From contig OZ076409.1 of NCBI GenBank assembly GCA_964187785.1, positions 35,404,001-35,468,000 on the forward strand: DNA of 64,000 bases. The letters are read 5' to 3'. Below the pieces are notes generated by a model. That model saw only the letters and a program-made list of their open reading frames with translations, was not told where the DNA came from and ran no database searches. Positions 10,633 to 48,362 of the stretch are shown piece by piece; the first letter of the stretch is position 1, and each line of letters starts with the position of its first letter. The stretch is from Amphiscolops sp. MND2022 (Eukaryota). Made by a program: the position numbers and the translations under genes.

Positions 10633-10738
10633 GTTGGTCAGGGTGTCATGTTTTTCAGACAGAAGTGAATTATATGGAAAAATCTGCGAAAGCTGTGATT
10701 GATGGAAATTAATCCAAAAAAAAACTATAATTAAGGTA

Positions 10739-25374: not shown

Positions 25375-25917
25375 GTCGTTGCGATTTAAACATGTTTTTT
25401 TCGTTTTATACGTTTTTTTTCGAAAAATGCATGTTTTTTGTTTTTTTTCAAAGAAATGCAAAATAACTGCACACAGCCGGTAAAAGAGACAAAGCAAACT
25501 GCAAAATCCTTCCAGGAAAGCCCATACGTAATCCCAGCTTCCACCATGAGGTTGTAGATGCCTCTTCAAAATTTTCAAAAACACTTGGCGCAAAGGGATC
25601 TTCTTTTGCTAAAACTTTCATGACTTCAGGCATGATATCGGCCTTACAATGTCGAATCTTTTCAAGGCTCATTACGTTTTCAGATGAAGTAAGCGACACT
25701 AGTAGAAAAAAAAACAAATTAAACAACATTGTTTTTTTCAATGCTGCTTAAGCAGCATTGAAAAAAAACAATGTTGTTTATTTTGTTTTTTCCCCACTAC
25801 AGTTTCTTTTACCTTCTTTAAACAAGTGGTTTAAACAAGGGTTTAAAAACATGTTTTGATCAAAACATGTTTTATAACCCTTGTTTAAAACACTCGTTTA
25901 AAACAATGCCAACTTTG
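25375..25917 (-). mobile_element. hAT deletion derivative, same family as 21288-21707, inverted
   Basis: Same terminal sequences; internal frame IRHCKADIMPEVM...TSWWKLG...ALSLLPAVCS resembles an hAT C-terminal dimerisation region. No clean TSD. Confidence 0.75.
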
Positions 25918-27331
25918 AAGTTTTTCACGTGCTTGAAACGTACGTGTTTTTTGGAGGAAGTCTTAGTGTAGAAAAACCCTGATCAAGTTTGTTCTGCTAG
26001 AAAAACCCTGATCAAGTTTGTTCTGCACAACATAAAAACATCGAAACGGGAAACTCACCTGATTCCGGAAGTGATGGCTGATGAAGTTGTTTCTCTTTTC
26101 AGGAAATTAAGATAAGACGTTTCTGAACAGACAAGATAAACAAAGAAAATCAGGCGAGCATTTGTGGATATCGTGAATGTGACACAGAATGGCCAGAAGG
26201 GACAATAAAGAGGCAACTAAAATGCTTTTTGAATGACAAATGACCGATGGAATACTGAAACTATAAAATAAAGTAACAATAAGGGGCAATATGAAACAAC
26301 AATACAATAAATCAGCCAAAACTGAAACAATTGAAGTATTTAGAGGGAGAGATTAAGTTGATTGAAGTGTTGATAGTAAATTTAGACAATTGAGCAAATC
26401 TTAAGGCAATTGAGTACGACTGTATAGCAGTGTAAAGGCAATGTATGAGGTGATGGAGTGATTTGATTTCGACCAATCAAATTCGAGCATTCAAAATTAC
26501 GATAACGTTTCTTTCAACGATTTGAATGTTCCCGGCAATGAGCGAATGGACAAACGAATACAATGTAGACAAGGCGTGAACAAATTAGAATGGGTAATTG
26601 AAGTTCAATTAAATGTACACGCTTAGTCTGCCAGCTAATGCACTTCAATTTGTCCATCCAATGTTTATTTAGACACAATTGGACAAAGAAAAATACAGAA
26701 AGAAAATCGAATATATAAAATGAATAAATATATATTTCGACATAAAGATTAAATTTTAGTAGATTAGAACATGAAAAATTATAATTTTATCAAAGGCATA
26801 CGATTGGCTTAGAGTAGTAGTGAGGTAACTTGAAAACAAAGTTTAATTATCCACTGAGGTGAAGATGAGTGGTAAAGAACTGAATTGGTTGGCGTACGTC
26901 ATGGAGAAACAGCTGTAACAATGGAAATTTTCTATTAAATCCGAAAAGGGAGGTTCTAAATACATCTAGGGATTCCAAAAATTGATATGTACACATGCAA
27001 GATTGTTCAATGGAAAGTTGTTTTGTTTTCGATTTTTGTATTTTTTTGTAAAAATTTTTTGATCAGTTATTGGCGTACGTCATAGAGTTTTCGATTTTTG
27101 TGTTTTTTCGTAATAAAAATTTTTGACCAGTTATTGGCGTACGTCTTAGAGAAACAACTGGAGCACTGGTAAATTTAAGTGGTAAACACCTTTAGGATTT
27201 GCACTTGAATAAGTTATCCCCAGAGATATGATACATTGGATATTTCACTAGAGCAAATGAAATGTCATTGGTTGTACGTATACCAGAATAATAATTATTA
27301 CTCTGGTATATTTGAACTGTAGTATCTGGTA

Positions 27332-27385
27332 AATTTGAATTGTAGTATCCAATGTATTAATACATTGGATACTACAATTCAAATT
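27332..27385. repeat. Perfect 54-bp palindrome without loop
   Basis: aatttgaattgtagtatccaatgtatt|aatacattggatactacaattcaaatt. Confidence 0.95.
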
Positions 27386-28198
27386 AGGAATTCTAATATT
27401 CAAAAGTTTTGTAAGGAAGCTTATTTTCAACAAAATTCAAGTAAGAGTAATAGGATTTATAATACAAAGTGTCAAAAAAACTTGTTTTGAGTTTTAAGAA
27501 AACTTATTATGCGGGGGGAAACTTTCTGAGGCATTTGTATGCGGATTATACATACATCTGGAATATACATATAAGGAATTCTGGAAACTATCAAAACTAA
27601 GGAAACTTGATGCAAATATAATGCATTAACAAGTGGAAAATGTATCAGTAATACTTATACTTCAATGCATATTGGCTCATAAGGAAAAACTCAGACACGT
27701 ACATTTACGCGCACTCTGAAAGTTGTATCTTGTAATGTTGTGAAAATTTGCAATTGAGATATAAAATTTGTTCACACTATTTTTCCTTATGAAGTAACTC
27801 GTTTTTGACAGCTTCTTTTTTTTGAGTCACAGATCAATTTTGTAGTTAAAATGTCGAAGTTCGGATTCAACAGACCAGTTGGACGATTTTTTTTTCATTT
27901 TGTGTTTTAAAACTTCACATTTGCAGCTAATGTTAGCACTATTTTCTTTATTGTTACTAATTATGAAGTGAATTGAAGAACTTGTACATCCAATTCAGTC
28001 CAACTGACCCATGGTTTTTTTCAAAAAAGCAATACGCCCCGGGATTTTGACGCGAGAAGCATGCGATAAATGTGTAGGGTGTCACGTTTTCTGTACCTTT
28101 CTGATACATTCCCCGTATGTCACTTGAACGTAACTTGGTTTTAATAAGGGGCATCTCATCGAAGCTTCTTCTTTTTCAGATCTTGATTTGATTTCCAG

Positions 28199-30735
28199 AT
28201 GAAGAAAGCTGCGAGTCAACCTTCAACTCAAAGTCGGAGTTCCCGGTGAGCCGCATGAAATTTTCGGAGACTGTTTAGATTGTGCATATATATGCTAATC
28301 GTTCAGGCAAAAAGAAAATCCGTTAAGTTTTTCGAATTGTTGGTCACACGCAAAAAACCTTCGCTCAGTGACGAGACTTTGATTCTTCAACTTTTTTTAT
28401 TCTAGCAGGAGATAAAACGGGATTTTCTGGTACTCGATATCCGATAAATCATTTTATACAAACATTTCAACAAATAGTATGTTTCAGACTGGCTGAGTTA
28501 CGAAGACTGGAGAGCGAGAACTTCGCTCTTCCTAGTGATTATACATTCCTCTTCTATTTCGAGCGCGAGAAGAAATTTATGTCCATTAATTGTCAATCTG
28601 GCTTCTGGAAAAAGGATTTCACCACTGCCAAAAAAATTGCTCTGGAGAAAGGCACTTATGTTGCTTTCAACAGCATTGGTACTGGCCAATTTCTTTGCAA
28701 GGGACCAGTTTTTCTTCTGGAGGCTGTTGCAAAGCATGTTGACGACAAAGTAGATGCTGGCTTTGACCTCGAAACGCTAGATATTACCATTGCCATGGAG
28801 GAAGCAAAAGACCAGCTAGAAAATCGAGAAGAAGAAGAAGAAGAAGAAGAAGGGGAAGAAGCAGAAGAAGTTGAAAATGAAGATATCAACACAACTTTCC
28901 TCCAAGTTAATAAAGCGCCCATTGAAAGGAATACTTCCCAGGAGATTTTCGACAACGATAATCCCCCAGTTGAGCCACATTTGGAGACACCCACAGCCTC
29001 AACCTCCAAAACGTGCCCAACTTGTAACCAATATCTGGATCACAAAAAACAGGTCTTTGGTTTTTGTTTCATTTGATTGCCGAAAAAAAAACAAAACAGT
29101 AATTTTCTTTTTCTTAAATTACTAAGGTCTTACTGTATACATTCATTATTTTGCTCATGTATATTTTTTAAAGAAGATGGATGCTGCTTTATTCGTGTAT
29201 TTTTAAAACATTTTTCTTTGATCCTGACATGAAAACAAGTTCTTCAACGATATTTATAACTAAAAATTAGTCTAAAAACGTAAATTCAAAAAGCAATAAA
29301 TCGTCTCATTTTGAAGGGCGACAATTCGTCCCAATTTGAAAAGGTGACAATTTGTCCCATTTGTATAAGGCAACAATTTGTCCCAATTTGTTCAGTTGAT
29401 CGGCAAATTTGAAGATTGAAATTGAAGAATTGAACAAAAAAAACTACAATTGATTGCATTTAAACAAAAAATTACATTACATTCAGGACCTATTGATTGG
29501 TGTTACTTGTTGGTACCTGCCTCCAAATGGAATAGATCTGGTTACTTTATTGCAAAGGTATTGATTGGCCATTAAACTGGGAACGAAGTGACGTTTTTAT
29601 TGTAGGGGACGATTTCAAGCTTATTGTCAGGTTAATCGTATCAACAGTTCAATTTTGCTCAGATAATATCCGTTGATGTTATTTAAAATTACAATCGTTG
29701 TTTTACGTTTGAGGCTTTATTTTTTCCTCAACCTAAGTGATTATGTTTAGAGAGAGGCGTGGGACAGGTTTACTCACTTGCTAACACGGCTAGAAAGTCG
29801 TTTGGATAGGGCGGCGGACATTCAGGAGGAGTCTCTAAAGTTTGCCCGAAAAGCTTTGAAAGAATTCAACTCTCTTTCAGCCATGTCAAGTCAAAGTTCG
29901 TTGAACGACGCTACTGGAAGCCAAACCTCTAATCCTTCAGGCAGGGGTGTTCAATATTTTTTTTTTCAAATTTTATTATTGCCTAAAACCTAATATATTT
30001 TCAGGGAGGACAAAATAAAAATTTTATTATTTTTATTGCTAAAATAATCATTTGTATACTCAGCGAAAAACGGATATCAACAAAAACTTAAACCGGCCAT
30101 CCATAATCAACCAAAACGCGTTGACAGGGCTTTTTTCTTGGACCCTAGGTATTTGACAAAGGTATTTCCAGAAACTAGCTCAAATTTTCAGTATTTTTGA
30201 ATTTCATTGGCTGACGAAATGTTGAATCGAACGATCTTATTTTTAGTTATCTCAAGAAAAATTACTTTTATTCTAAAAGGTCCAAAAACAATTTTGATTC
30301 ATTAGAGCTCTAATTATTAAGTTCTAATATTACGCTAGCGTAAAAATAATTTTTTTTTATTTATTATAATTATTTCTACCCAAAATTATTTTTTGAACAC
30401 GCCTGCCTTCAGGAGAAGAAGTGATGTTCAATGGTTTAAATCTTACCAATTTGGGGGGCGATACTCCTGCTCAGAAGACCAAAAACATTGCTTTGGCCTT
30501 GTTCACGACTGACGAGCTGGGAAAAGTGGTTATTGACCCCAGAAAATCGCTGAATAATTGTTCTCAGCGAGTGCCAGCCGACGAATATCGGACGGAATTG
30601 TACAGGAAAGCTGTACGCGTAGCTTTAGGTCAGCATTTTACGACCGACCTGTACAGAAATACACTACGTCTTGTGAACCAGATGGGAGTGGACAAAAGTG
30701 CCAAGCCGAAACAAAACAAACTCGAAAAGAATTAA
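28199..30735 (+). CDS. Spliced ~375-aa BEN-domain-like protein (acidic region, CxxC, coiled coil, C-terminal BEN-like domain)
   Basis: Exons 28199-28245, 28488-29052, 29751-~29946 and 30413-30735, phases 2,0,1, no stops. The C-terminus LNLTNLGGDTPAQKTKNIALALFTTDEL...RVPADEYRTELYRKAV...TLRLVNQM fits the BEN pattern (LF..xEL, R..xD..R, terminal I/VN helix). Confidence 0.65.
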
Positions 30736-31039
30736 TCTTGAAACTTTTGTCAATATTTCCGAAAACTTTGTCCGTATTTATTCTTGACATATGAACTTTG
30801 CATTAAACTTCCTGTTGTTGACAACATTTGAAACACTTTTGGGCATTTTCTACTCGAGCGGATCGTTGAAAAGTTATATGTTCAATGTTCGATTCAATGA
30901 GTGTACTTATTATTATTAGTACAAAAGATGTCTAATACGAGTTTCCTACGAAAGTAGTTGTGTTTTGCGCAGAGAATTTGCATTTTCCCACTCGAATGAC
31001 TTTTGCAACAATTGATTTAAAGATGAAACTTTTTCAGAT

Positions 31040-31814
31040 ATGTTTGCGGATGCTGAAACGGTTAACAACCTGATGACCAGAATTGAAAAACTGGAGGAGA
31101 CCTTGGTTCGATTCGATACCATTGAGATAGAATATAGGAACACCATGCTCAAAATCTACCAGCATTTCAGGTTGCAGGTTAGCAACAATCTTCAAAATCA
31201 ATCTTGTCTTTGGAAAAAGAATTTCTGAACTTTTGATTCAAAAAACGCAACTAGAGAAATTTCAATTGCTCTAGAGTTAGTCTCAAACTATTGAAAGAGT
31301 TTAAACTAGAACAATTGTTACTAGAATGAAGATCGCGCGAAAGCATCACAGCTGAAAGACGTTACCGAAGAACTGTGGTACAATTCAAACAATTTGTTGG
31401 AGTATCAATGTGACAGAACGGACTATCGGAAAGTCGGGAGAGTTCTCGTCAAAAAAATTTACTCAAAAGAAGAAAGACAGCAGTACAGCTTTTCTCCGAG
31501 GAAGCGAGCACCAATGGAAAAATTCCAGCGAGAACCCGCAACTGCTGAAAGTCTTGAAGCATTCAAAGGTGAGCTACAACTTTTCCCGTTGTGTTTAGTT
31601 TCTGTCTCCGACTTAACAGTATATACTGTATAGTATATACTTTAGAGTTAGTAAAAACTCATGTCCCAATATTTTCTATTTTCTCTAGGGTTGATTTTAT
31701 CATTGCTCTAACTTCGAAGTTAGACCGATGATAAAATCACCCGTGCAGAAGATAGAAAATTTTGGAAATTGAACTTTGTGTCTCTAATATCCCGAGAAAA
31801 AAAGGAATTTGAAT
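31040..31814 (+). pseudogene. Second coiled-coil plus BEN-like gene, last exon with in-frame stops
   Basis: Exons 31040-31177, 31325-31568 and ~31689-31814. Motifs: DYRKVGRVLVKKIYSKEE..SFSPRK..REPA; FWKLNFVSLISREKK. TAA and TAG interrupt the last exon. Confidence 0.5.
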
Positions 31815-31884
31815 GAAGATGGGAAAACGAAAAAGAGCCGATGTTTAAAGCGTTTTGGTCAATTGGCCTTTTTAGTTTGTGTGC

Positions 31885-32072
31885 TCGGGTCCTTTCGCAG
31901 TTAGCGGTATGAATAAATCTCGGTTGGACCGCCGCATGAAAGATGATCGACAACAGCTGCCCCTCTATTTCTAGCCTGACAGGCAGACTACTGTTGTGAT
32001 TACTTTTTGTGAGAGATCAGGTACGGTCCAGCCGAGCGGAGAAAATACTCTCCTTCCATGAAATGATCAATT
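31885..32072 (-). repeat. Diverged inverted copy of the ~200-nt structured module
   Basis: Reverse complement reads ggaaggagagtattttctccgctcggctggaccgtacctg...caggctagaaatagagg...cggtccaaccgaga. Confidence 0.9.
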
Positions 32073-32709
32073 GGAGTTTGTTCTATATCTATTTTTTGTT
32101 CGAAAAATATTGGTTCAGCGCAGAATGTCAAATGTGGTATTGGTTTGCGTGCAATACATGTATTTAAAACAAATGAGAAAACTTTTACATATATTTATTT
32201 TTTTTATAGAAAAGCAACCATTTCCCCCCGAAACCTTGGTTTTCCAATCCACACTGCATGGAAATCAAACGCTAGGTGTAACGCGGATTATATTATCAGT
32301 AATTCATTGTATGCTGTTCTGCGCTATTGAACAAGCCTTCCTAATTGATGCTACGTACCGGTAGCAAGCAAACAGTACCAGTAGCTAGCATACTTGTTAA
32401 TTAAGTTTGTTTACAAGTACATACAAGTACAGTAGCGTTGTAAACTATAGCAACTCCAATGCTCAAAATTGCAAAGTTCAAGTCCAAGTTTTTTAAAGAC
32501 TGACACAAACACGAAAATATGTCAGCTACAAAAAGTTCTTACAATTTCATCTAGTTTACAAAAAAGTTTGTTTGAAAATTTTGTGACAAAAATTACAAAA
32601 ATTAGAAATTGTAAATTAATCAGTCAAAATTTTGACAGTTCAATCAAACTTGTACATTTTTTGGAGTTTCACAAAGTTGAAAGAATAATTTTGAAAAATT
32701 TTTAGTCTA

Positions 32710-34449
32710 TCATTTTTTTTCGTTTTTAGTTCTTATTTCATCCGCATTTGGAATGTTTTCATTTCTGTGACGCTTTTTGGACAAATCCGGGACCCGTTGA
32801 TTTTCAATTGTTTTTACTTTAATTTTCATCGGCATTTGGAATGTTTTCATTCCTGTGACGCTTTTTGGACAAATCCGGGACCCGTTGATTTTCAATCGTT
32901 TTCACTTTTATTTTCATCCTGATTTGGAATGTTTTCATTCCTGTGACGCTTTTTGGACATATAAAAATAAAGGTAAAAACGAATCGAAATCAACGTGTCT
33001 CGGATTTGTCCGAAAACCCTGGTCGAGAAAAATGCGTTCCTTGCAAGGATCTTGCAAGATCCTTGTAAAAATGCAATTACTTGTAAGATCTTGCAAGGAA
33101 ATTTGTTCCTTGCAAGATGTTGCAAGGAAATGTTTTCCTTGAAAGATCTTGCAAGGAAATGTTTTCTTGAAAGATCTGGCAAGGAAATGCTTTCCTTGCA
33201 AGATTCTTGAGTTCAATGTACTTCATACTGAGAAATTATGTTAACGTAGTTGTGATTTGAGAATAATGTCAAAAACGTTAATAACTATTATTTCAGAAGG
33301 GTAATTTAACAAATTGAAAAATAATTTCAATCGAAATATTATGCACAGTCTAATTTCAAATCAATAACTGGTAAATAACACAATTGGTTGGAAAAATTTT
33401 CAGAATACTCTGAAACTGTATTTTAAATGTTGCGTCACTGAAATGTACTACTATTTTTCAAATAACTTCACTATCACACTTTTAGAGATAGTTTCTACAG
33501 TTTGCATCTTTTTGGTGGTTGAATCCTCTAGTTAGTAAACCCCGTTCTGTGACAGAATCTAAAAGTCACGATGCAGTAGTCAACTTGAAGTCAAAAACAA
33601 AGAATATAAAAAACAAAAAAAATTGTCGGGAACCTTCCACGAAGTTTTTCTCCTTGGAAGAATATTGCAAGGAATTTTTTTTCTTGCAAGATACTTGCAA
33701 GATGTCTTGCAGAAAAATGCATTATCTTGTAAGACCTTGAAAGAAAATCTTGCAAGATCCTTGCAAGGAACGCATTTTTTTCTACCAGGGAAGCGTCACA
33801 GGATTTAAAACATTCCAAATGCGGATAAAAATAAAAGTAAAAACGAATGAAAATCAACATGCCTCGGATTTGTTCAAAAAGCGTCAAATTAATGAAATTA
33901 TTCCAAATGCGGATGAAAAGGAAATTAGAAACGAATAAAGTCAACGTGTCTCGGATTTGTCCGAAAAGCGTCACAGAAATAAAAACATTCCAAATGCGGA
34001 TAAAAATAAAGGTAAAAACGAATGGGAATCAACGTGTCTCGGATTTGTCCAAAAAGCATCAATGAAATGAAACCAATCGAAATGCGTATGAAAATGAAAG
34101 TAAGAACTAATGAAAATCAAAGTGTCTCGGATTTGTCCAAAAAGCGTCAAAGGAATGAAAATCTTCCAAATGCGGATGAAAATAAAAGGGAAACGTTTGA
34201 AAATAAACGTGTCTCGGATTTGTCCAAAACGCGTCACAGGAATTAAAACATTCCAAACGCGGATAAAAATGAAGGTAAAAACGAATGAAACTCAAGGTGT
34301 CTCGGATTTGTCCAAAAAGCATCAAAGAAATAAAAACAATGGAAATGCGTATGAAAATGAAAGTAAAAACAATGAAAATCAACGTGTCTCGGATTTGTCC
34401 GAAAAGCGTGACAGGAATGAAAACATTCCAAAAGCGGATGAAATTAAAA
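32710..34449. repeat. 88-bp satellite; orientation switches near 32960; interrupted by a MITE
   Basis: Minus-orientation units at 32710-32960; plus-orientation units at 32960-33016 and 33791-34449. Confidence 0.9.
33017..33790. mobile_element. CCC...GGG non-autonomous DNA transposon with 2-bp TSD (CMC/EnSpm-like)
   Basis: ~45-bp TIR ccctggt..aaaaatgcgttccttgcaaggatcttgcaagat; CTTGCAAG subterminal repeats. Inserted in a satellite unit (gtccgaaaa|...|aagcgtcac), implying an AA duplication. Confidence 0.85.
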
Positions 34450-37299
34450 TTGTTCATTTCTTTGGAAGGAGAGTTGCTTCTCCGCTCGGCTGGACCGTAC
34501 CTGAATTCTCACAAAAAGTGATCACATCAGCAGTCTGCCTGCCAGGCTAGAAAGAGAGGAGCAGCTGTTGTAGATCACCCTTCATGCAGCGGTCCAACCG
34601 AGACTAATTTATATTGGTAACTGCGAAAGCTGTTACCATGCTAGAACACTGTATGATACGGCAAATCGACTGAATGCTACAACAAACCTTGGTTGGGTGT
34701 TTTTCAACCACAGTCAATTGTCCGTACTTTTGTTCGTATCAGTTGACAGTTAATGTTACTAAATATGTATTGACAAGATGTTGCTTAAGCAGTTTTCAGG
34801 GTCGACAAGTAAATCGTTTTACTTCCAGATTTTACATGTTTTTGTTTTCTTTTTGCATAATGACTACGTTATACCAATTGAAGACAAATTCTTTATCAGT
34901 AAGTAAATAGGAAACTACATGTAGTTGAATGGCTTTCCTGCTTGGCGTATTGGACTAGCAGTCCAAAGAACTAGTATACAGCCAATCACAGTGCAGTAAT
35001 CACTTCGTATAAATATTTAGTCTGGCTAACTGAATGCAGACAAATAGGACATGCGCCGGAAACAGCAACAAACAAATATTTTTCCACAAAAACTTTACAC
35101 TAGTTCAAGTAAAAGTAAAACCTCTTTCATAATGGGACTATAACGTCTATTTTTAAAACAGTTTTTTTGCTTGAACAAAACGTTTTTCATACATTTTGAC
35201 TATGAATATATTCGTAAAAAGTGTTTATTGATGACTCAAAACAGGAAGCTGTTGATTTCTTCATCAAAAATGCGTGACTACTTTGGGAGAAAGTGTGAAC
35301 AAAGTCCGTATCTCATTTCCAAACTGTCATCCTGAGAATATACTTAAAATTGAAGCATTCTGGCTCGTATTCAAGTATTTTTAAATCAGATTTTCATTAA
35401 TTTTACAAACAAACTGGCGGTGGGGGAAAACAGAAAAAAGCCGACGAGACATCACATTGTAACAATATTGAAACTTTTCAATGGCTCAACTTATAGGCTT
35501 GAACAAAGTATAATTCATACCTGGTTCATTAACAGTATGTATTTTTCTACGCAGGTGCTGTTCGAATTCTCTGTGGCACCAGCAGTTATGCCTACCTGAG
35601 AGCAAAGGATGGTGCAAATCAAGTTGGACTGGAAGAGCGATACGAGGAAATAAATAAAGGTAAAAACGAATGGGAATCAACGTGTCTCGGATTTGTCCAA
35701 AAAGCATCAATGAAATGAAACCAATCGAAATGCGTATGAAAATGAAAGTAAGAACTAATGAAAATCAAAGTGTCTCGGATTTGTCCAAAAAGCGTCAAAG
35801 GAATGAAAATCTTCCAAATGCGGATGAAAATAAAAGGAAAAACGATTGAAAATAAACGTGTCTCGGATTTGTCCAAAACGCGTCACAGGAATTAAAACAT
35901 TCCAAACGCGGATAAAAATGAAGGTAAAAACGAATGAAACTCAAGGTGTCTCGGATTTGTCCAAAAAGCATCAAAGAAATAAAAACAATGGAAATGCGTA
36001 TGAAAATGAAAGTAAAAACAATGAAAATCAACGTGTCTCGGATTTGTCCGAAAAGCGTGACAGGAATGAAAACATTCCAAAAGCGGATGAAATTAAAATT
36101 GTTCATTTCTTTGGAAGGAGAGTTGCTTCTCCGCTCGGCTGGACCGTACCTGAATTCTCACAAAAAGTGATCACATCAGCAGTCTGCCTGCCAGGCTAGA
36201 AATAGAGGAGCAGCTGTTGTAGATCACCCTTCATGCAGCCGTCCAACCGAGACTAATTTATATTGGTAACTGCGAAAGCTGTTACCATGCTAGAACACTG
36301 TATGATACGGCAAATCGACTGAATGCTACAACAAATCTTGGTTGGGTGTTTTTCAACCACAGTCAATTGTCCGTACTTTTGTTCGTATCAGTTGACAGTT
36401 AATGTTACTAAATATGTATTGACAAGATGTTGCTTAAGCAGTTTTCAGGGTCGACAAGTAAATCGTTTTACTTCCAGATTTTACATGTTTTTGTTTTCTT
36501 TTTGCATAATGACTACGTTATACCAATTGAAGACAAATTCTTTATCAGTAAGTAAATAGGAAACTACATGTAGTTGAATGGCTTTCCTGCTTGGCGTATT
36601 GGACTAGCAGTCCAAAGAACTAGTATACAGCCAATCACAGTGCAGTAATCACTTCGTATAAATGTTTAGTCTGGCTAACTGAATGCAGACAAATAGGACA
36701 TGCGCCGGAAACAGCAACAAACAAATATTTTTCCACAAAAACTTTACACTAGTTCAAGTAAAAGTAAAACCTCTTTCATAATGGGACTATAACGTCTATT
36801 TTTAAAACAGTTTTTTGCTTGAACAAAACGTTTTTCATACATTTTGACTATGAATATATTCGTAAAAAGTGTTTATTGATGACTCAAAACAGGAAGCTGT
36901 TGATTTCTTCATCAAAAATGCGTGACTACTTTGGGAGAAAGTGTGAACAAAGTCCTTATCTCATTTCCAAACTGTCATCCTGAGAATATACCTAAAATTG
37001 AAGCATTCTGGCTCGTATTCAAGTATTTTTAAATCAGATTTTCATTAATTTTACAAACAAACTGGCGGCGGGGGAAAACAGAAAAAAGCCGACGAGACAT
37101 CACATTGTAACAATATTGAAACTTTTCAATGGCTCAACTTATAGGCTCGAACAAATTATAATTCATACCTGGTTCAATAACAGTATGTATTTTTCTACGC
37201 AGGTGCTGTTCGAATTCTCTGTGGCACCAGCAGTTATGCCTATCTGAGAGCAAAGGATGGTGCAAATCAAGTTGGACTGGAAGAGCGATACGAGGAAAT
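34004..37299 (+). repeat. Near-identical 1,648-bp tandem duplication
   Basis: 34004-35651 repeated at 35652-37299 (same offset at both ends). Each unit holds satellite, the structured module and a partial Merlin-like MITE. Confidence 0.92.
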
Positions 37300-37464
37300 G
37301 ATGAAAACTAAAACTCCAAACATTAAATGCTCTGAATTTTGAAATATTCGCATTTTGTTTTAGCATTTGCGGGAAAGAAAATCAATTTTACGCATGTTTT
37401 TTTTGCAAAATGCAGAAAAATTAGGATTTATATTTTCTTTTAGCGCGTTGCCATTCTCTATAGC

Positions 37465-37589
37465 CAGGGCTGGGTAAAATACAATAAGTGATTACAATAT
37501 TTGCAATAATTGTGGAAGCAAAAAATGATAATTGCAATAACTGTGTACAATGGTAAAAATTGAGAGAATATTGATTGTACCCAGCCCTG
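37465..37589. mobile_element. 125-bp hAT MITE
   Basis: TIR cagggctgggta; TSD tctatagc/gctatagc (7/8). Confidence 0.85.
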
Positions 37590-37807
37590 GCTATAGCACT
37601 ATCTTTTCTGATAAGGAAAAAAGTGCTCTAATTTTTCCGCATTGGAAAACTTTGGCTTTGAGCCCCTTCCCTGTGTTGAGAAAAAGAAAGAACTAAATAG
37701 GAAATACCGCATAGGGTACTTTCCGTTGAGAAAAAGAATTATTTTATCAACTTTGCTCCGAATTTGTCACGGTTCTTATTAGCTCAGCTGTAAGTTTGTT
37801 TTCAGAG

Positions 37808-39019
37808 ATGTCGAATATCACCGCAGTCAAAAACTTCAATTGGAAAATGCTGGGTGCAGTTGATGCATCCCTTACCAGTGAAGTTATAGATTCTTGTGGA
37901 ATTAGAACCCACAAAATTCAAACAGAGTTTACAGCTAACGAGGATTCAGTGATTGTGGAATCCTACCTGAGGACGCAATATTTAACAGCAAAAAACACGT
38001 TGTCGTTTAAACCAGTGAATTACTTGACCTCGGAAAACTACACCCCAATGGGCGTTTTTGCGAAAAAACCGTTTCCTGAAGGTAGTAAAATTGATGGCCT
38101 AACAGCTTTTTTTATCGAAGATGCCGGAGGAAGAAGTCAAGGAAGGTGAGAATGATTTTTCACTGATAGAGAGTGGGCTGTTGGGACGACAGTGGCTGAT
38201 GCTTGGACCGCTAGCATTTGTAAATGCTTCTTGTAAGCCAAACATAGAGTATAAGCATGAAGGTAATCGATGGTGGGAACAACCCAAACTTCAAATCTTT
38301 TCATTTTTCGGAAATACTGATTAAGAAAACAATCTGAAACAGGGTTGTTGTGTTTTTTAACATTTGTTTTTCAACACCTGTTTTTAACATAATATTTAAC
38401 GTTTTTCAACCATGATTTTTCAACATATTTTCAACACCCTTAATGAATCATTTGTATTTCAGAGAAGAAAAAGCAAATTTGACAATGGAACGTTTATCAG
38501 CTCGAATTGAAATGGTGTTTTCCACCATTGGCTTTGCGTACCTTGATGAAAGAAACAGATTTGGGCTGCAAAAATGGCTATTGTCCTTCGCCCCTTGTGT
38601 TGTGATGTTGTTTTATTTCAACGACGTTCTTAACTTTCTCTCAATTTTTAAGTGTTTTTAACTTTATTTAACGTTTTTAACGCTTTTGAACGTCAAAATG
38701 TTTTTAACGTGTAAAAAATACAACCCTGATCTGAAATCTGAAATACAATTTTCAAAAAAAAAAACAATTTCCAATTTCAATTTTCACTTTCACAAATAAT
38801 TGTTTCCCTCCTTTGAAGGTAATATCATGCTTTGTAATGTCATCGAAGACATCCGAGAAGGAGCCGAAATTGTAGTCTATTATCATAAACATTACTTTGG
38901 CGACTTCAATGTTAATTGCTTGTGCCCCTTCAAGTCTAAGCATCGTGAATATTTCACCGACATTTAACCAAGGACGAGAATAGCAAAAAAAACGCAAAAC
39001 TCATGAAATACTCATCTTC
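37808..39019 (+). pseudogene. SUV4-20/KMT5-like SET domain 1 (two exons, disrupted)
   Basis: Exons 37808-38262 and 38819-39019. Motifs D..LTSEVID..GIRTHK, GENDFS, LMLGPLAFVNASCKPN, DIREGAEIVVYY..YFGDFNVNCLC parallel SUV4-20 (DD.ATSLVLD..LGFQTHK, GENDFS, LWLGPAAFINHDCRPN, DIEPGEEISCYYG..FFG.NN..CEC). +1 frameshift in T7 at 38107-13; stops at 38965 and 39004. Confidence 0.85.
38340..38728. mobile_element. hAT MITE in the SET intron
   Basis: TIR cagggttg; perfect 8-bp TSD atctgaaa (38332-39, 38729-36). Confidence 0.9.
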
Positions 39020-39276
39020 GTATGTCAAAGATTAAAAACTTCATCTGAAGATTTCAACCACTTTTTGCCCATTACCTTGGCAATTTTCAAATGCTCAGTT
39101 TATTTTTATTAGTATTCGTATGCTGAATATACTGAAGAAGAAAATATCATACCAATACCGAACAAAAATTGAATTTGTTCACAACAGGTCCGCTCAAATT
39201 TAAACTTTGGTCATTTTTTACTTGAAACTCACATGAAAGTTTATATCTATAGTTATAGCGTCTTCTTCCATTTCAG

Positions 39277-40415
39277 ATATGTCTGGCAACATCGTCATTC
39301 CTTGGCGAAAACTGAGAACGATAGATAGCTCTATTTGGAAGCAGACTGTCGTTGACAACATAGATTTCACAACAGAGATGTCAACGAGTACGAGTGAGTA
39401 GATATCTAGTGATAAACATATATAAACATATAAACATTATCGGAGACTCAAATTCGAAAATTGTTTTTGAAAAAAGGGAAAAACGAGACATGAAGTAATC
39501 AAATGAACATCATTCAAACGACTGCGAAGCTTTTGATTATTATTGATAAGTATTACTCAAGTTCTCGTTGTATTTTCAAGAAAAATATCGAAATTTCAAC
39601 GAAAATAGAAAAAAAGATATGAGTTATTGAAATGCAGTTTGTCTTGAAACATTTTTTCAGGTACATCTGGCGACGATGATTTGTTGAGAAAGTTTCTCTC
39701 ATCAGAGTATGGTATTTTCCGAGAATTATTTCAACATAAGCAATGCAGTGGAGTCATCACCAGACAGCCGTTAGAAAAAATGTGATGCTATCAGGATTGA
39801 TAGGCGTTGTTGCCTCGATATCTACTGAAGAATTTCTGGAACAACAACAAAAGGACTTCATGGTCTACAGAAAAAGAGAAGAAGAGGAGTTGTTTCTGCT
39901 TTGTGGGCCTTTGTCATTGGTTAGAAACTCATGTACACCCAATGTTGACATTATAAAGTCTGGAAATGTTTTGTCCTGCCAACCTACCAGACATATTAGC
40001 GCTGGTGAAGAAATTTCGTCAGGATTTGATGTTTTTCATTCAAAAGAGTACAGTTTCAGCGGAAAAGAAAATTTAGATACAGTAAGTCTTTTGTCACAAC
40101 AGACTTTAATGGGCTCTCCAGTTCCAGTGAAACGACCGTATTTTCTCTCATCGAATCCTTTACATCGTGTTCGTGATCCTTTACATCGCTTCTCAAACAA
40201 CGTATCTCGAGTTGAAGAACAAACACCGGAAGACGATACAGACGAAGAAGAACTTCTGAACTATGATGACGTTTTTGGTGATTATGGCAACCGAAGTGAT
40301 GAGCGTTTAATCAGTATCGAGGACAGCAACAGTATTGCCCAAAACAACAGCGAGACCCAAGACGATACAGCAGAAAATCAACCAGATAATTTCATTCTGG
40401 AAGAAGACATACGAA
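39277..40415 (+). pseudogene. Second, more diverged SUV4-20-like SET domain plus acidic linker (two exons)
   Basis: Exons 39277-39393 and 39661-40415. Motifs: WRKLRTID..., KDFMVY..LFLLCGPLSLVRNSCTPN..TRHISAGEEI. -1 frameshift in A6 at 39775-80. Confidence 0.75.
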
Positions 40416-40793
40416 GTAAGTTTATTTACTTTGCTATAGCCTTTTTGACAACCCGTTTGTCGGAATACTATTGTCTGATTTTCAAATTACCTGGTAACTA
40501 CATGTACAGCGAATTAAAAAAAACATCAATTTCCAAATAACATTCTGTTCATATTTTGCCATGAAAGTTACATTGAGGAAACTTGCAATTTTTTTTTCAA
40601 AATTTCAATAAACCAAACTTTTCAGCGAAAATATTAGTTTTTAAAGAAAAAATTAAAGGTTTTTGTTCTAACTTTGTGATTCGCATTTTCGGGACGTAGC
40701 ATTAGGATTATATCAACACAGTGGATGTTAACAAAAACTTTAAAATTACGATTTAAAAATCATACTTATATTTGGAATTCTTCATTTTTTGAG

Positions 40794-42758
40794 GAAACGA
40801 TCAAGCATCAGACTCAACTGGAGATCCTGGCAAGCTGCCCGGCGAACCACCTGGCGAAATACCTGGCGAACTACCAATTGTTCATGGATCAGCACATTCA
40901 GTTTCTTCTTTCATGAGAAACCTCCAATCCTTCCATAATAGACATAAAACTTCCAAAGTTGCTCAGAAAGAATTGTTACGCCTAATCAACAATTTTTTTG
41001 GTCCTCTCCAGATCTCATCAGAATGTTACTTGGAGGAAAAACCTTGTCTCACTGTTTTCGACTTCGCAGATTGCAAGTTAATCTGTGTAGACGCTGTAAA
41101 ACAACTCCAGTTTTTGATAAACAGAAGTTTTCGTCATATTGAGAAATCTTGGCATGCTGATTGCGATTTCCAAATACCACATTACCCGATGAAAAAAGGT
41201 GAGATTCAGCTAAATCTAAATTTGGATGGAGTGTCTATTTTCAAGTCTCGGAAATTCAGCATTTGGCCTTTCTGGTTACAAGTTGTTAATTTGCCTCCAA
41301 AACTGCGGTCATCTTTCAAAAACAACCTTTTGTTAGGATTGTGGTAAGGGATCTCAAAACCTGATTGGGAAACGACTTTACCAAAAATTAGCTTTGAGAT
41401 GGAATCTTTGGAGAAACCGAGTTTCAACGAACATATCGGAACATTCAAATGTAAATTTTGTCTACTAATCTGCGACATGCCTGCAAAAGCTGCTGCTTTG
41501 AACATGAATCAATTTAATGGTTTTAATGGGTGCACCCATTGTTTGATGATTGGGAAAAGAGAAGATCATCGCACGTTATACCCTTGTACGGATAACGCTC
41601 CCTTAAGAGATGAAAAAAGTTTTTCGCAAAATGCTAAGAAAGCCGAGGAAACCAAAAAAGTTGTCGCTGGCATCAAAGGGCAGTCCTTTCTCAAGTCACA
41701 CTTCGCTTTTCCCTGGGATGCTCCAGTTGACCCGATGCATCAGATTTATCTAGGCACAGGAAAATCTCTGACAAAGCTTTTCGTATCGAGCTTGAAAAAA
41801 TTTGAATTATCAACATTGAATACATTTTTGCAAATTTTAAGAATACCCAATGAGTTCCTCCGTCGTCCAAAGAAAGTTGAAGAGATTTCATATTGGAAAG
41901 CTGGTGACTTCAAACTTATGTTTTTACACATAATTCCGCTGATCATTGGCCAATTCAAAAGTCTTGCTGATGAAAAGAAGAAAAAGTATCAAAAGCTTTC
42001 TTTAGCTGTTCGGTTATTGTCCCTGAAGCAGGTTCGTGAGGAACATGTGAAGGAAGCTTCTTCTCTGATTCAATCCTTTTTTTTCCAACTTCACGGAGAT
42101 TTACGGAACAAATATGCAATCGTATAACTTTCATTCAATGCGACATTTGTGTGATCAAGTTCGACGAGTGGGACCTCTTTGGAACACATCAGCTTTTTCT
42201 TACGAATCAGCCAATCATTTTCTTGTCAAAAATGTGGCGGGTACTGTAAAATCACCAGAAGCTATCGTCGAGGCTTTTTTGAAATCTAAAGAAGTGTTCA
42301 TTTGTGATGATACCGAACCAGATTTTGAAACTTTGAAAAAGTTTTCGAAAGTTTCTACTGATTGTCACAACTTCTGCAAAATATTCCCAGGTCCACAAGA
42401 CTTTTTTGGTCGCTTCCGTACTCCTGACGGAGTAATTCTATCCTCTTTGTCCTACTCAAGGCTGAACGACAATGTGTCAAACTGCGTTATTCAAACAAGA
42501 AGTGGGATTTTTGTACAAGTGGAATGTTATCTTTCCATTGAATCTACTTTGTTTGCAATTGTCCGTACATTTCGGAATGTCAAAACCTTTGACGAGTTAC
42601 CACGCAGTTTGCAAACTAATTTTTTGTATCGTTTAGAAGATCTAGGGCCACTAGAGAGAATTAATACGGATCAATTGGCGTATAAATGTGTTCTGATTGA
42701 GTTGCAAAGTGGGACATTTCTTGCCAGTGTTGTTAAAGAAGGATTCGAACATAATTGA
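40794..42758 (+). mobile_element. CMC/EnSpm (CACTA-type) DDE transposase, disrupted
   Basis: Motifs LNLNLDGV.IFKS..SIWP....VNLPP, CDMPAKA...QFNGFNGCTHC, VDPMHQIYLG, WKAGDF, SYNFH..RHL....GPLW..SAF.YES. Premature TAA at 41345-47; +1 frameshift in T8 at 42077-84. Confidence 0.9.
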
Positions 42759-43242
42759 ACTTTGAAACAAGAGTAATTATTTTTCGAGAAGAGTACTTAG
42801 ACGTCTATTGTTGTTCACAAATGAAGTTAAAACTTTTTTAATGGACAAACCATTTTCAGAATCATTTGATGATCATTAACACGAAGGATGAAAACTTCGA
42901 CACTCTTTCGTAAGTTGAATTCGATTGATCTGACAATTGCAATCTAAAATAGTTTTGTTTTCGTTTTTCTACTGATAAAATCCTGTTTTTATTTTAGCAC
43001 TTACTCTCAGGTATTGATCCGGATCAGGCCCGCCTATACATCAGTCGGAGTCGCAATTTCTAACAAAAAATGCAGAACCTCTCGCGGTAAGTTTGACCAA
43101 AAATTGAGACACAAGACTTTCATAATCCCTCTCATTTTTATTTGAAATCTAGACATCTTTTCATCATTTTCCATAGAAAACGATATAATCATTATAAAAG
43201 GATCATATTATAAAATGTTCATTATAAAATGATGATAAAATC

Positions 43243-43644
43243 GGCTCTTTTTCCTTTTCCTCCCCACACTTTTCAAAGAAAACAAACTCAACATAAAGGA
43301 TTATATTTGACTATATCATTCAATATTTCTTCGAATAAAACTTTTCCTTTGTTTTGTTGTGTCCACACTATTAGAGTAGGTTTCCGCTTGAACAAAACAT
43401 TGTTCACACAATTTGACTAATTATGTTCGTATTGAGTGATGACTCAAAACAGGAAGCTGTTGATTTGTTCATCAAAAATGCGTAACTACTTAGGGAAAAA
43501 GTGTGAACAAAGTTTGTATCTGAATCCTACACTATCCCCCTGAGACTAAATTTAAAACAACTGTTTCATTGGAAACGTAATTGAGATATATTTAATTGCA
43601 AAAACATCATCTTGAAAAGTGTGGGGGGGGAAAGGAAAAGTTCC
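43243..43644. mobile_element. Diverged Merlin-like MITE
   Basis: Imperfect GG...CC TIRs; TSD ataaaatc/ataaactc; shares gactcaaaacaggaagctgttgatt core with neighbouring MITEs. Confidence 0.7.
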
Positions 43645-43702
43645 ATAAACTCAATATATAAAATGATATTCCGCAAGATGACTGATTTGGAAAGCAAATT
43701 TC

Positions 43703-44114
43703 GGCTCTTTTCTGTTTCCCCCCCCCACCACCAAAATTTTTGAAAATATCTTTCCTTAAAAACTTTATACTAGCCTAATTAAAAGCAAAACATTCTTTCA
43801 TAACAGGAAGATAACTTCTATTAGAGTAGTTTTCCGCTTGAACAAAACATTGTCCACGCTTTTTGACTATAATTATGTTCGGATTAAGTGTTTATTGATG
43901 ACTCAAAACAGGAAGCTGTTGATTCTTCATCAAAAATGCGTAACTACAAATTGAAAAAAGTGTGAACAAAGTTTGTATCTGAATCCTAAACTATCACCCT
44001 GAGAATAAATTTGAAACTGAAGCTTTCTGGTTTGTTTTCAAGTCTATGTGTTATAAGATTTTCAATAATTTTCCAAAAAAAATTTGGTGGTGGGAGGGAA
44101 AGCAGAAAAGAGCC
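43703..44114. mobile_element. MITE with GGCTCTTTTCTG TIR and 8-bp TSD (Merlin-like)
   Basis: TSD caaatttc at 43695-702 and 44115-122. Confidence 0.9.
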
Positions 44115-44329
44115 CAAATTTCTGAAATTTCAGACAACGTGTACACTACGTGAGCGACCTCAATTAGGCGAAGCCGAGACAAGAAACGAGACAACTACTA
44201 CTCGCATCCATTACTGACGTCACTGACGAGTCCGCGCGACAGAAGGCAATTACAGCGTAATGTAATGTAATGTATATACTGGTGACGTCGATTATAACAG
44301 TGACGTCACAGAGCAACTTGAAGAAACAA

Positions 44330-45620
44330 ATTAATCCACGTGTCTCTGTTTTGTCCAAAAAGCGTCAAAGAAATGAAAACATTCCAAATGCGGATGAAAA
44401 AAAAACAGTAAAAACGATTGAAAATCAACGTGTCTCGGATTTGTCCACAAAGCGTCACAGGAGTGAAAACATTCCAAATGCGGATGAAAAAAAAGTAAGG
44501 CTCTTTTCTGTTTCCCCCCCCCCCCCCACCACCAAATTTTTTTTTGAAAATTAGTGAAAATCTTATAACAAATAGACTTGGATACAAACAAGAAAGCTTC
44601 AGTTTTAAATTTATTCTAAGGGTGATAGTTTAGGATTCAGATACAAACTTTATTCACACTTTTTCCCTATGTAGTTACGCATTTTCGATGAAGAAATCAA
44701 CAGCTTCCTGTTTTGAGTCATCAATAAACACTTGATACGAACATAATCATAGTGAAAATGTGTGAACAATGTTTTGTTCAAGCGGGAAACTACTCTAATA
44801 AAATTTAACTTCCTGTTATGAAAGAAGGTTTTACTTTTAACAAGGTTAGCCTAATGTTTTTAAGCTATTTTCAAAAAATTTGGTGGTGGGGGGGGGGAAA
44901 CAGAAAGGAGCCAAAAGTAAAAACGATTGAAAATCAACGTATCTCGGATTTGTCCAAAAAGCGTCACGGGAATGAAAACATTCCGAATGCGGATGAAAAA
45001 AAAGTAAAAACGATTGAAAATCAACGTGTCTCGGATTTGTCCACAAAGCGTCACAGGAGTGAAAACATTCCGAATGCGAATGAAAAAAAAAGTAAAAACG
45101 ATTGAAAATCAACGTGTCTCGGATTTGTCCACTAAGCGTCACAGGAATGAAAACATTCCAAATGCGGATGAAAAAAAAAGTAGAAACGATTGAAAATCAA
45201 CGTGTCTCGGATTTGTCCAAAAAGCGTCACAGGAATGAAAACATTCCAAATGCGGAAGAAAATAAAAGTGAAAACTAATGAAAATCAACGTGTCTCGGAT
45301 TTGTCTGAAACGCGTCACAGGAATGAAAACATTCCAAATGCGGATGAAAATAAAAGTAGAAACTAATGAAATCAACGCGTCTCGGCTTTGTCCAAAAAGC
45401 GTCACAGGAGTGAAAACATTCCGAATGCGAATGAAAAAAAGTAAAAACGATTGAAAATCAACGTGTCTCGGATTTGTCCAAAAAGCGTCACAGGAATGAA
45501 AACATTCCAAATGCGGATGAAAAAAAAAGTAAAAACGATTGAAAATCAACGTGTCTCGGATTTGTCCAAAAAGCGTCACAGGAATGAAAAAACATTCCAA
45601 ATGCGGATGAAAATAAAACT
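44330..45620 (+). repeat. 88-bp satellite array, interrupted by a MITE
   Basis: About ten units of the caacgtgtctcggatttgtcc family. Confidence 0.95.
44499..44912. mobile_element. MITE (Merlin-like), inverted relative to 43703-44114, inserted in satellite
   Basis: TSD aaaagtaa at 44491-98 and 44913-20. Confidence 0.9.
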
Positions 45621-46247
45621 CAAAACCAGAGAAATTTCTCTGATTTTTACTTTCATTTAGAATTTTAATAGTAATTTTATTTACTTTTTCATTAACGAAT
45701 TCTTACTTTTCTTCATTAACAATTGTTACTTTTTTCCGATATTCCAAGCACGGTAATAACTCCTTCGATGAGAGAATTATTTGCATCCCTTGAACACGAA
45801 CAATAGTCAATTTCCGTTTCTTCAAAGAGTACAACTACTAGGAAGAATTCAAATACTAAATTGTTAACTCAGGACTCATGCAGTAATTACAGGCATAACA
45901 AACATATGTAAGATGTGAGGACAGAAAAACAAATGTAAATATAAATGCTAGCAATTTTATAAATACAATTTTTGATAGCAAGTTTGTGTTTTCGGTTCTT
46001 TGTTTATGTTCAAGTCGAGCCAATCGGGTGAAGAAACTCAAAGAGACCCTAACTGAGCCAAACACATTATACATTGAAGGTAAGTGCAGAAGTTAACCGA
46101 AAACACCCGAGATGCATTCATGCCTTTCAAAATGTTGACAAATCCACTGAGTCTTTTTTAGGATTGTTGAAGACATGTCTGCAGGCGAATTTCAGTCGAG
46201 GCAACTCAGCTTGAACAACTAAAACAAGTAAAACAATACCAACTAGA

Positions 46248-46351
46248 ATGAACCTCAAAACGGCTGCAAAATGAATAACGTAAAAAACACGTTCAACTGC
46301 AGTTGAACGTGTTTTTTGCGTTACTCATTTTGCAGCCGTTGTTAGGTTCAT
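46248..46351. repeat. ~100-bp near-perfect palindrome centred on CTGCAG
   Basis: aacggctgcaaaatga...cacgttcaactg|cagttgaacgtg...tcattttgcagccgtt. Confidence 0.92.
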
Positions 46352-47607
46352 GATTACATTCAACTAATTTTTTGTTCAGTCGCGCTGTCCAGAATTCCTT
46401 TCAGCCAATCATGTTTTGCATCATGTTATCACCATACTACAAAGTGTCATCTTAAGTTTGCTATAGATACGTCTCGACTCGAGGTCAATTTAAGCTGACA
46501 TAGAGACAACAAGGAACATGGAACTTAGTAAGTTCACTTTTGCTCCTTTTCGGTAGCCTTCGATTGTTTCGTAGTTCATTCCTGAAGCGAATTTCAGCAC
46601 AAGTAACAATATTCTCAAAATTGGGAAAAACATCTAAAAAATGGGAATAATGTCTAAATATTGAGACGTTACTGCTGAAAATTGAATGATATTTAGACGT
46701 CTAGATTTGGATCTTTTCTGTCAATCCCCCCACAGTAAGCGCGAAAAATTTTAATTCCCCAACACTCCCCGGTAAAATTGTTCCTTTAGACGTATTTCCT
46801 CATAAAATTTGATAGACTTTTTAAATTTAAACTTCTATAGAGGTTATTATAATAACGTTGAGGAATTAAATTTTCCCCGCTTACTGTGGGTGGTGGGGGG
46901 AGGCTAATAAATAGACAAGATTTGTGATCACCATGTTTCATAGTATGAGGAACGTTGAATTCTAGATTGAAAGTCGAACGTTTCTTTCTCTCCAATGTGA
47001 TCTCTCTCTGACACGGGCGGACTGGAACAAAACATTTGTAAAAGAAGTACCACTGCAAGAGAAGCCTTTCGTATTTTCGAGTTAGTGAAACATTTCTTAA
47101 TTCCGTGACGCCCCCCACCGCGGCTAGTTAGTACTTATAAGCAAATGCCGTATGGGAGAAATATCAAATGTTTGCATATGAAATATTGCAACTACAGCAT
47201 ACTTTTGCAAACTTTGACCTGCTAATTTGTATTAAGAGGAAATTATTCAAATCAACGCAAAGGACATGTCAACATGATAGTATTGGAACCTTGTGTACCA
47301 TATCATTGGCAAATTAGCATGTTTTTTTTCTATTATATCCCTTTCGGGCAAAATTGGGACTTTCAAAACAGTTTACCAATTTTCAATTATTCAATTCAAT
47401 AAGAAAAAATAATCAATATATTAAACGAAAACAAAGTTGAGATCTTATTATATTACAACTAATTCATTCGTTGTTCCTCACTATTTTGAAAATTAACTAT
47501 GTGTCTTATCCCCCAATAAACTATAATGTGACCAAAGTTTTTGAAATATGATATGTTTATTCTAGAACACTCGGTTTTGGGAGCTGCACATTTGCCACAG
47601 TTGTGAT

Positions 47608-48362
47608 CTAGGACAGTCGCTTGAGAGCCGTGCCCTAACTTGCGAGGATCTTGATGAAGGAGCTACTCAAATGTACATGTACCGTGAGATGAAACATACG
47701 TCAGTGCATCCAGAAAATGTACAGTTGTAAACAATTTCTGCTACTGCTAAATAAAAGGTGCAGCCCTCAAGGTAGTGTTTTTCTCATGAAGACGGAAGCA
47801 GCAGACTACCTGCAGAGTGATTTGGACGACGAGTGATTCGTCGAAGTTTGGACATTCGGTCCACTTGACAGCAACAACAAACTTGAATCACATATGTCGA
47901 ACGAACTCTTATTCTTTGAATACGTGTACATTTTTATCTTTATCTTCATCTATATTTGTTTTGCTGAAGCTGTAAAAATCTTTCATTTGGAAATTTTCAG
48001 ACTCCTTTTCCAATTTACTTTCAAGATTCAAGCATTTTCTTCCAAGTTACTCTCAAGGTTCAGGCATTTTCTTCCAAGATACTTCCAAGATCAGGCATTT
48101 TCTTCCAAGTTACTTCCAAGATCAGGCATTTTCTTCCAAGTTACTTCCAAGATCAGGCATTTTCTTCCAAGTTACTTCCAAGATCAGATATTTTCTTGCA
48201 AGATCTTGCAAGACCAGACATTTTCTTGCAAGATCTTGCAAGACCAGACATTATCTTCCAAGATCTTCCAAGATACCTGCAAGAATAATGCATTGTCTTC
48301 CAAGATCTTGGAAGTGAAATCTGACAGATTCTTGCAAGAAATGTATGGGAGTTCGACTGGGG
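47608..48362. mobile_element. Right part of a CCC-terminated element: dispersed repeat, CTT(G/C)CAAG array, terminal gtatgggagttcgactggg
   Basis: Homologous to 11505-11905; the terminus is the reverse complement of 10739-10770. Confidence 0.7.

Follow-up and report, generated by a model that had tools for sequence, protein, structure and literature searches.

SET domain genes have been reported from HarbingerS and Phytophthora MuDR elements (PMC12730594), and from Helitrons and the red-algal Plavaka PAG2 (bioRxiv 10.1101/2025.02.11.637652). SET-carrying transposons are thus known, but an in-frame fusion involving SUV4-20, the class of enzymes that methylate histone H4 lysine 20 (H4K20), was not found in print: the literature searched, with Repbase and most subscription journals lying outside it, yielded no SUV4-20-type SET in a transposase chain. 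How cut-and-paste elements handle nucleosomes and silencing is largely open. Here we describe a stretch of 64,000 nucleotides (hereafter the window) from the genome of Amphiscolops sp. MND2022 (contig OZ076409.1; G000:C1:35404001-35468000; genome size 1.07 Gb, spliceosomal introns present), which an earlier note had read as tandem SUV4-20-like SET domains spliced in frame to a CMC/EnSpm transposase, in a CACTA-type transposon. The element in this window is a recently mobile cut-and-paste transposon of about 35 kb belonging to the CMC group, and its transposase has an enzyme domain of the H4K20 class built in, which selection has retained in families less than 30% alike.

A SUV4-20-derived SET domain fused to a CMC transposase

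In five sister families, one SET domain and the transposase share a single stop-free, intronless frame (1001 codons at loci L022/L046, 977 at L028 and L030, 1016 at L123, 1099 at L125 and 1043 at L127) in which Pfam detects both SET and DUF1258, so that the fusion requires no splice model. Both ends were found in two of the six sister regions tested for them, and the two complete elements so delimited (11.3 and 15.3 kb; ends CCCA; duplications TA and TT) each enclose a single-frame fusion. The pairing of SET and transposase that the note had described from one copy thus recurs in other copies that have terminal inverted repeats (TIRs) along with target site duplications (TSDs), within the family of the window element as well as in sister elements. 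Both domains are also present in 25 of 161 library proteins, two of them 99% identical to loci of this genome and the other 23 showing 27-40% identity to the best examined locus. The SET-transposase fusion is real, and intact intronless copies can be expressed directly, which makes a transposon-encoded histone writer testable.

The SET domains are SUV4-20-derived, as the note had proposed with KMT5B/C in mind, and PDB matches, profile, fold and tree all agree on this point. A PDB search with one element SET gave SUV420H1/H2 in ten of ten matches, and a 22-sequence SET profile scored SUV420H1/H2 at 105-109 bits with the next family at 47. A structural model of a sister-family SET (predicted local distance difference test, pLDDT, 87) superposed on SUV420H1 with Z 20.9 and a root-mean-square deviation (rmsd) of 2.8 over 187 aligned residues, the N-terminal helical domain included; the same model gave Z 19.0 with SUV420H2, 10.2 with the next family and 8.1 with the SETMAR SET. 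A midpoint-rooted tree was built from 53 rows (22 from alignment A1, SET1 and SET2 of the window element, 16 of the 25 library fusions, the host gene, three of six metagenome SUV4-20s and nine other host-genome SETs). Its 44 rows of element SETs and canonical SUV4-20 form a group separate from the nine outgroup rows (support 97/94), which is the grouping that the note had expected of a SET phylogeny, and SET2 sits on a long branch. The host has a single canonical SUV4-20 gene (C12:41.46 Mb), the sole genome match to the canonical motif; canonical SUV4-20 was not returned by protein searches, and was obtained by a genome motif search and from metagenome contigs. Element SETs are about 25% identical to this host gene, and because the tree sets the four canonical genes together at 100/100, the capture is old and does not stem from the present host gene. 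Capture by a transposon and duplication of the SET, both suggested earlier, are supported.

Other SET families of this genome were also noted. A second multi-copy group of SUV4-20-like SETs (L161, L163-L167, L169-L171, L173 and L174; e.g. G000:C11:60851923 and C2:61782471), joined to repeat linkers and C2H2-like fingers, forms one branch (94/71) and keeps His183 (numbering as below) and all four zinc cysteines in 9/9. The L165 region resembled a tyrosine recombinase (Crypton-like) by eye, a candidate that was dropped when profile searches gave it no support. The multi-copy SET families at L193-L198 (e.g. G000:C7:41633021 and C4:55768346), some with frames of 1100 codons, look SETD8/PR-Set7-like by eye. 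Across the genome the SET profile gives 1399 candidates, of which the best 150 were scored, and mobile elements may have amplified enzymes of both H4K20 classes in this genome.

The fused transposase has the features of the CMC/CMCT group, namely the motif triad, a RAG1/Transib-like fold, TIRs with a 2-bp TSD, and a family profile. The published CMC signature is a DDE triad in which C(2)C and H(3-4)H lie after the second D and before the E (PMC12730594), and D27, D110, C129, C132, H198, H329, H333 and E353 are invariant in 12/12 aligned transposases. In the window copy the triad lies in NLDG, ICDMPA and YESAN, which together with DPMH were located in exon C (Table 1), where the note had seen these motifs retained. 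DUF1258 was detected at 36.8 bits (cut-off 33.1), with Transposase_21 and DUF4218 under their cut-offs (E 0.002-0.003). The transposase model of an intact copy (pLDDT 85) matched RAG1 with Z 14.8 and rmsd 4.8 over 357 aligned residues (Foldseek E 1e-7), while a search of PDB sequences with the transposase profile gave no match.

The ends and copies of the element, which the earlier note lacked along with several accessory genes, attest to its mobility. The 37-bp TIR has 151 exact matches in the genome and its reversed control 0. Among the TIR places listed (100 of the 151) are at least eight full-length copies of 35-51 kb, window copy included, that are 97-99% alike, and several derivatives of 1-1.5 kb. 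The window element aligns colinearly with two full copies over almost its entire length, and the right end at 48362 is common to all ten copies compared. The transposase query found 147 genome places (the best 147 of 301 candidates), 11 others matching at 91-99% over most of the query. A 2-bp TSD flanks six of six paired ends and a seventh pair, all seven lying outside the window copy; a 3-bp GTA/GTA duplication, another way to read the ends of the window copy, was accordingly discarded, and these ends are read as TA with a single additional G. With ends of the form CCCC..GGGG and this 2-bp TSD, the element departs from strict EnSpm/CACTA (CAC..GTG, 3-bp TSD); the CMC-type transposase of the note stands, by motifs, fold and DUF1258. 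CCC ends with a 2-bp TSD would fit animal EnSpm/Mirage. Next to copy C2a (L098, G000:C2:56.408 Mb), the sequence past the right end reads by eye like a tRNA gene, and this copy may therefore have inserted beside one.

SET1, SET2 and the reading frame of the window element

The five plus-strand exons of the note are present at the coordinates that it gave, with GT/AG ends and phase-1 junctions, and so are its two SET-like units (SET1 upstream, SET2 downstream), the GAG acceptor (40791-93) and the three homopolymer frameshifts (an extra T at 38107, a missing A at about 39774 and an extra T at 42077). Of the three stops that it counted, the TAA codons at 38965-67 and 41345-47 are lesions of this copy, whereas TGA 39004-39006 is shared by other copies. 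All three frameshifts and both TAA stops are private to the window copy relative to eight other copies, and the homopolymer changes may be sequencing errors. Pfam gave weak matches only on these broken exons.

The in-frame join of SET1 to SET2 was not borne out by comparison. The five-exon SET1-SET2-transposase model is open in 0/8 aligned copies (C8 and C12, where the anchor was not found, being left out). TGA 39004-39006 is in frame in five of the eight (C3b, C10, C9, C2b, C6a), and in the remaining three another exon-2 length breaks the frame at the junction; in C3b, C10 and C2b it is the sole internal stop, and SET1 ends at 213 amino acids. Among three older relatives the TGA is in frame in two (C7, C12) and the third has a shorter A-run and a different frame; none of the three has the exon-2 donor GT at 39020. 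One other in-frame GT lies ahead of the TGA (ATC/GTGAAT, phase 1).

The remainder of the proposed chain fared better. From ATG 39279, exons 3-5 form an open frame of 944 amino acids in four of the eight copies, and of 928 in a fifth with an in-frame deletion, so that SET2-transposase stands as one predicted chain without SET1. In older copies the intron-3 acceptor lies six bases away, still in frame, and the intron-4 donor and GAG acceptor are retained in 7/7 compared, with several in-frame AGs downstream of the latter. Homology to sister transposases starts at about 40865 (a hand-converted position), upstream of 40913, where exon C has its first Met. An acceptor 5-9 bases upstream of the ATG is also found in three of four single-SET sister families; the exon-3 acceptor therefore needs no SET1, and looks like a leader junction. 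A tandem SET-SET-transposase chain is probably not the main product.

Tandem SETs were also seen at two other CMC loci, L175 (G000:C10:3.507 Mb) and L180 (C1:12.728 Mb), where two or three copies precede a broken transposase; SET duplication has recurred.

Table 1. Coordinates of features in the window (positions counted from its first nucleotide).
Feature	Position	Strand	Remarks
SET1 exon 1	37808..38262	+	ATG two bases past acceptor; THK 37907-15, NDFS 38151-62, LGPLAFVNASC 38202-34
SET1 exon 2, up to shared TGA 39004-39006	38819..39006	+	VVYY; post-SET CLCPFKSKH
SET2-transposase exon A	39277..39393	+	ATG 39279, two bases past acceptor; those two bases AT or GG by copy
Exon B, with the decayed core of SET2 and the acidic linker	39661..40415	+	donor retained in 7/7 compared
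Exon C, CMC transposase	40794..42758	+	NLDG 41219-30, ICDMPA 41468-85, CxxC 41531-42, DPMH 41729-40, HxxxH 42126-46, YESAN 42201-15
C-terminal BAH-like fold of transposase	42324..42725	+	model residues 393-526; coordinates carried over from L003; matched by structure alone
Giant CMC DNA transposon, entire copy	10739..48362	+	37,624 bp; 35.3 and 36.1 kb in intact relatives
Left terminal inverted repeat	10739..10775	+	37 bp, starts CCCCAG; preceded by TA 10737-10738
Right terminal inverted repeat	48326..48362	-	perfect match to left; then one extra G, then TA 48364-48365
Subterminal tandem repeats	48008..48314	.	31-bp and TCTTGCAAGA units; related arrays 10851-10934, 33080-33209
Accessory exon, acidic	28372..29073	+	CxxC at end; relatives in 3/6 sister regions tested
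Accessory exon, BEN-domain-like	30397..30732	+	52-65% identical in 3/6 sister regions
Second accessory exon	31325..31570	+	relatives in same 3 sister regions as BEN-like exon; BEN-like by eye only
Two passenger frames	20072..24596	-	652 and 415 amino acids; weak zf-BED/hAT-like features in the first
Tandem duplication of 1.65 kb	33998..37299	+	private to window copy; includes 88-bp satellite arrays
Miniature element in SET1 intron 1	38340..38728	.	CAGGGTTG ends, 8-bp duplication ATCTGAAA; alignment to older copies breaks there

Possible roles of the element SETs

Between sister families, the pairwise ratio of non-synonymous to synonymous substitution rates (dN/dS) is 0.13-0.20 for the SET and 0.14-0.20 for the transposase. 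Against the three older copies it is 0.42, 0.26 and 0.24 for SET1, 0.38, 0.25 and 0.22 for the transposase, and 0.73, 2.35 and 1.08 for SET2, with wide intervals that include 1, these being pairwise counts with broken copies of which C7 and C12 are close kin. Such values point to purifying selection on SET1 and near neutrality of SET2. Residues were numbered as in Suv4-20h2 (PMC3874154), with 182, 183 and 185 counted along the motif. Across 29 CMC-linked SETs, whose families are 23-48% identical, Ser161 and three zinc cysteines (Cys185 and two post-SET cysteines) are present in 29/29, and Asn182 and Tyr217 in 28 each. SET1 has Ser161, and in place of the SUV4-20 methyl pocket it carries Tyr, Met, Leu and Val at Phe191, Trp174, Ala178 and Ile181. 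SET2 has lost Ser161, Asn182, Tyr217 and the post-SET cysteines, and keeps the GP, C and N of the fold; the two working H4K20 enzymes that the note implied are hence not supported.

The lineage of these elements long ago fused a SUV4-20-derived SET to the transposase N-terminus, giving the layout SET, acidic linker, RAG1-like DDE core and BAH-like tail, and in the family of the window element this SET was duplicated, the two copies decaying unequally. On balance we favour, with some reserve, an explanation in which the upstream SET1 would have become a separate gene of 213 codons that kept its active-site residues, and SET2, still spliced to the transposase, would have lost them and persisted as a relic leader. 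The SET would engage nucleosomes via the tail of H4 and would most likely have remained a lysine methyltransferase dependent on S-adenosylmethionine, with a rebuilt methyl pocket and therefore not performing the conversion of H4K20me1 to me2 that the host enzyme carries out. Whether joined to the transposase or provided alongside, it would condition chromatin at element ends or insertion sites for the element's benefit, and SET1 could act in trans.

Several observations weigh against this explanation, besides the broken and related copies on which the older dN/dS counts depend. Phe191 is replaced by Tyr in 24/29 element SETs, SET1 included, and kept in 5/29; Trp174 is Met or Leu in 29/29; His183 is found in just 8/29; and the fourth zinc cysteine is found in 5/29, often with a His three places on. 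A Phe-to-Tyr change in SUV420H1 caused a dramatic loss of activity (PMC3874154), and because this change is present in 24 of the 29, ordinary H4K20me2 writing of the host type by element SETs is doubtful. Separate SET and transposase frames occur at L121/122, L129, L130, L175, L179 and L180, and two SET-transposase inserts in sister loci that were checked as introns showed no clear GT-AG ends. The SET2-transposase junctions are predictions from sequence, the GAG acceptor is unusual, and the family has transposed recently even though its fused SET is decayed, so that a functional one is not required. The Phe191 change, the loss of His183 in 21/29, the behaviour of the SUV420H1 mutant, the retention in SET2 of fold residues without catalytic ones, and the non-catalytic SUV420H1 mechanisms named in the title of PDB 8t9h would all suit a catalytically dead or nearly dead SET, serving as a nucleosome-binding tether that steers the transposase in target choice or access. 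We regard this as a serious rival, though an unlikely one: a pure tether need not keep Ser161 in every SET, and Asn182 and Tyr217 in nearly every one, at such low identity between families, and a free SET1 cannot tether unless bound to the transposase.

The exons of the window family could also be read in other ways. SET1, SET2 and transposase might be made as one protein through the donor before the TGA, exon-2 skipping or read-through, in keeping with phase-1 junctions throughout and with the in-frame GT, which is kept in 2/3 older copies; with no copy open, the TGA shared, donor 39020 gone in 3/3 older copies, A-run length varying regardless of frame, and acceptors like that of exon 3 in families with a single SET, this is improbable. 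The SET2 exons might instead be a dead remnant, unspliced to a transposase that starts on its own, as the weak GAG acceptor, the near neutrality of SET2 and the split frames in some sister loci would allow; exons A and B nevertheless stay open, their splice sites are kept or shifted in frame, and conserved transposase sequence lies before the first Met of exon C, so that we give this reading little credence. The broken state of the window copy and the other passengers of the element would agree with the SET being neutral cargo, or a domesticated host gene like SETMAR. This has been largely refuted, and hardly any likelihood is left to it, given the multiple copies with TIRs and TSDs, a SET dN/dS equal to that of the transposase, and the separate canonical SUV4-20 gene that the host retains.

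In the transposase tail, residues 393-526 of the whole-chain model match eight or more BAH domains at middling scores (Z 7.0-8.3), including those of EBS, AIPP3, TNRC18, Rsc2, Ash1L and ORC1, and DNMT1 BAH1 with H4K20me3 at Z 6.5; BAH sequence searches of the tail and a search of a viral fold library gave no match. The ORC1 BAH domain reads H4K20me2, and that of DNMT1 is likewise a reader of H4K20 methylation. As the BAH-like domain is found in 36 examined proteins without a detected SET, and in 19 with one, it predates SET capture. It is tempting to speculate, although we think it unlikely, that the transposase combines its own chromatin writer (a re-tuned SET) and reader (the BAH-like domain), marking and then recognising nucleosomes at ends or targets, and that the mobile elements of this genome have spread SUV4-20-like SETs to well over 100 loci, enough to reshape host H4K20 methylation. 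The element may, more generally, profit from binding or marking chromatin. In one family there is a natural split, the free SET being conserved and the fused one decayed, and the element SETs constitute natural variants of the SUV4-20 pocket, possibly with new specificity.

Other contents of the window and relation to known systems

Among the other contents of the element (Table 1), the BEN-domain lead for the exon at 30397..30732 came from Atlas (0.92-0.93, with BEN on 20-33% of members). The two passenger frames are present in both full copies compared and in 0/6 sister regions. Further 88-bp satellite arrays are at 16544, 19185, 32720 and 44913. A short acceptor-led frame (AVRILCG...) lies just before SET1 at 37203-37340 (+), inside the duplicated block, and has no relative in the sister regions. 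Two small elements that have CAGGG at their ends and duplications of 8 bp are found before SET1 (37465-37589) and in the SET1 intron (38340-38728), the latter being presumably of hAT type by its ends and duplication. Elsewhere in the window are an ABC transporter exon of a host gene to the left of the element (6567-6872, +), a hAT transposase dimerisation domain (54427-54822, +) and, outside the element, frames of a BEL/Pao long terminal repeat retrotransposon (58206-62988, -; DUF1759, Peptidase_A17 and integrase). Two sister elements, L125+L126 (G000:C2:18564712-18580058) and L123+L124, hold frames that look SGNH-hydrolase-like by eye, and the former also a RING/zf-UBP (BRAP2-like) host fragment, likewise by eye.

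The nearest relatives of the element are those of the CMC/CMCT group (EnSpm/CACTA, Mirage, Chapaev; PMC12730594), with which it shares the DDE triad, C(2)C and H(3-4)H, TIRs, a 2-bp TSD, subterminal repeats, accessory genes and the RAG1/Transib fold, and from which it differs in its N-terminal SET, its CCC ends instead of the usual CA, and its 35 kb. With SUV420H1/H2 (KMT5B/C), the element SETs have in common the N-terminal helices, the SET and zinc post-SET fold, Ser161, Asn182, Tyr217 and three cysteines; unlike them, they have Met or Leu for Trp174, mostly Leu or Ile for Ala178 and mostly Tyr for Phe191, and have mostly lost His183 and the fourth cysteine. HarbingerS and Phytophthora MuDR are likewise DNA transposons with a SET lysine methyltransferase (PMC12730594), but belong to other superfamilies, and the HarbingerS SET is an accessory gene outside the transposase (bioRxiv 10.1101/2025.02.11.637652). 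The giant red-algal Plavaka, in which PAG2 comprises a DNA methylase and a SET, are also large EnSpm-group elements with chromatin-enzyme cargo; their SET lies in a separate accessory gene, and they measure 17-19 kb and come from another kingdom (bioRxiv 10.1101/2025.02.11.637652). SETMAR/Metnase (PMC2847698) likewise joins, within a single protein, an N-terminal SET to a DDE transposase, but it is a domesticated host gene that combines a mariner transposase with an H3K36-type SET, whereas here the fusion is itself a mobile element.

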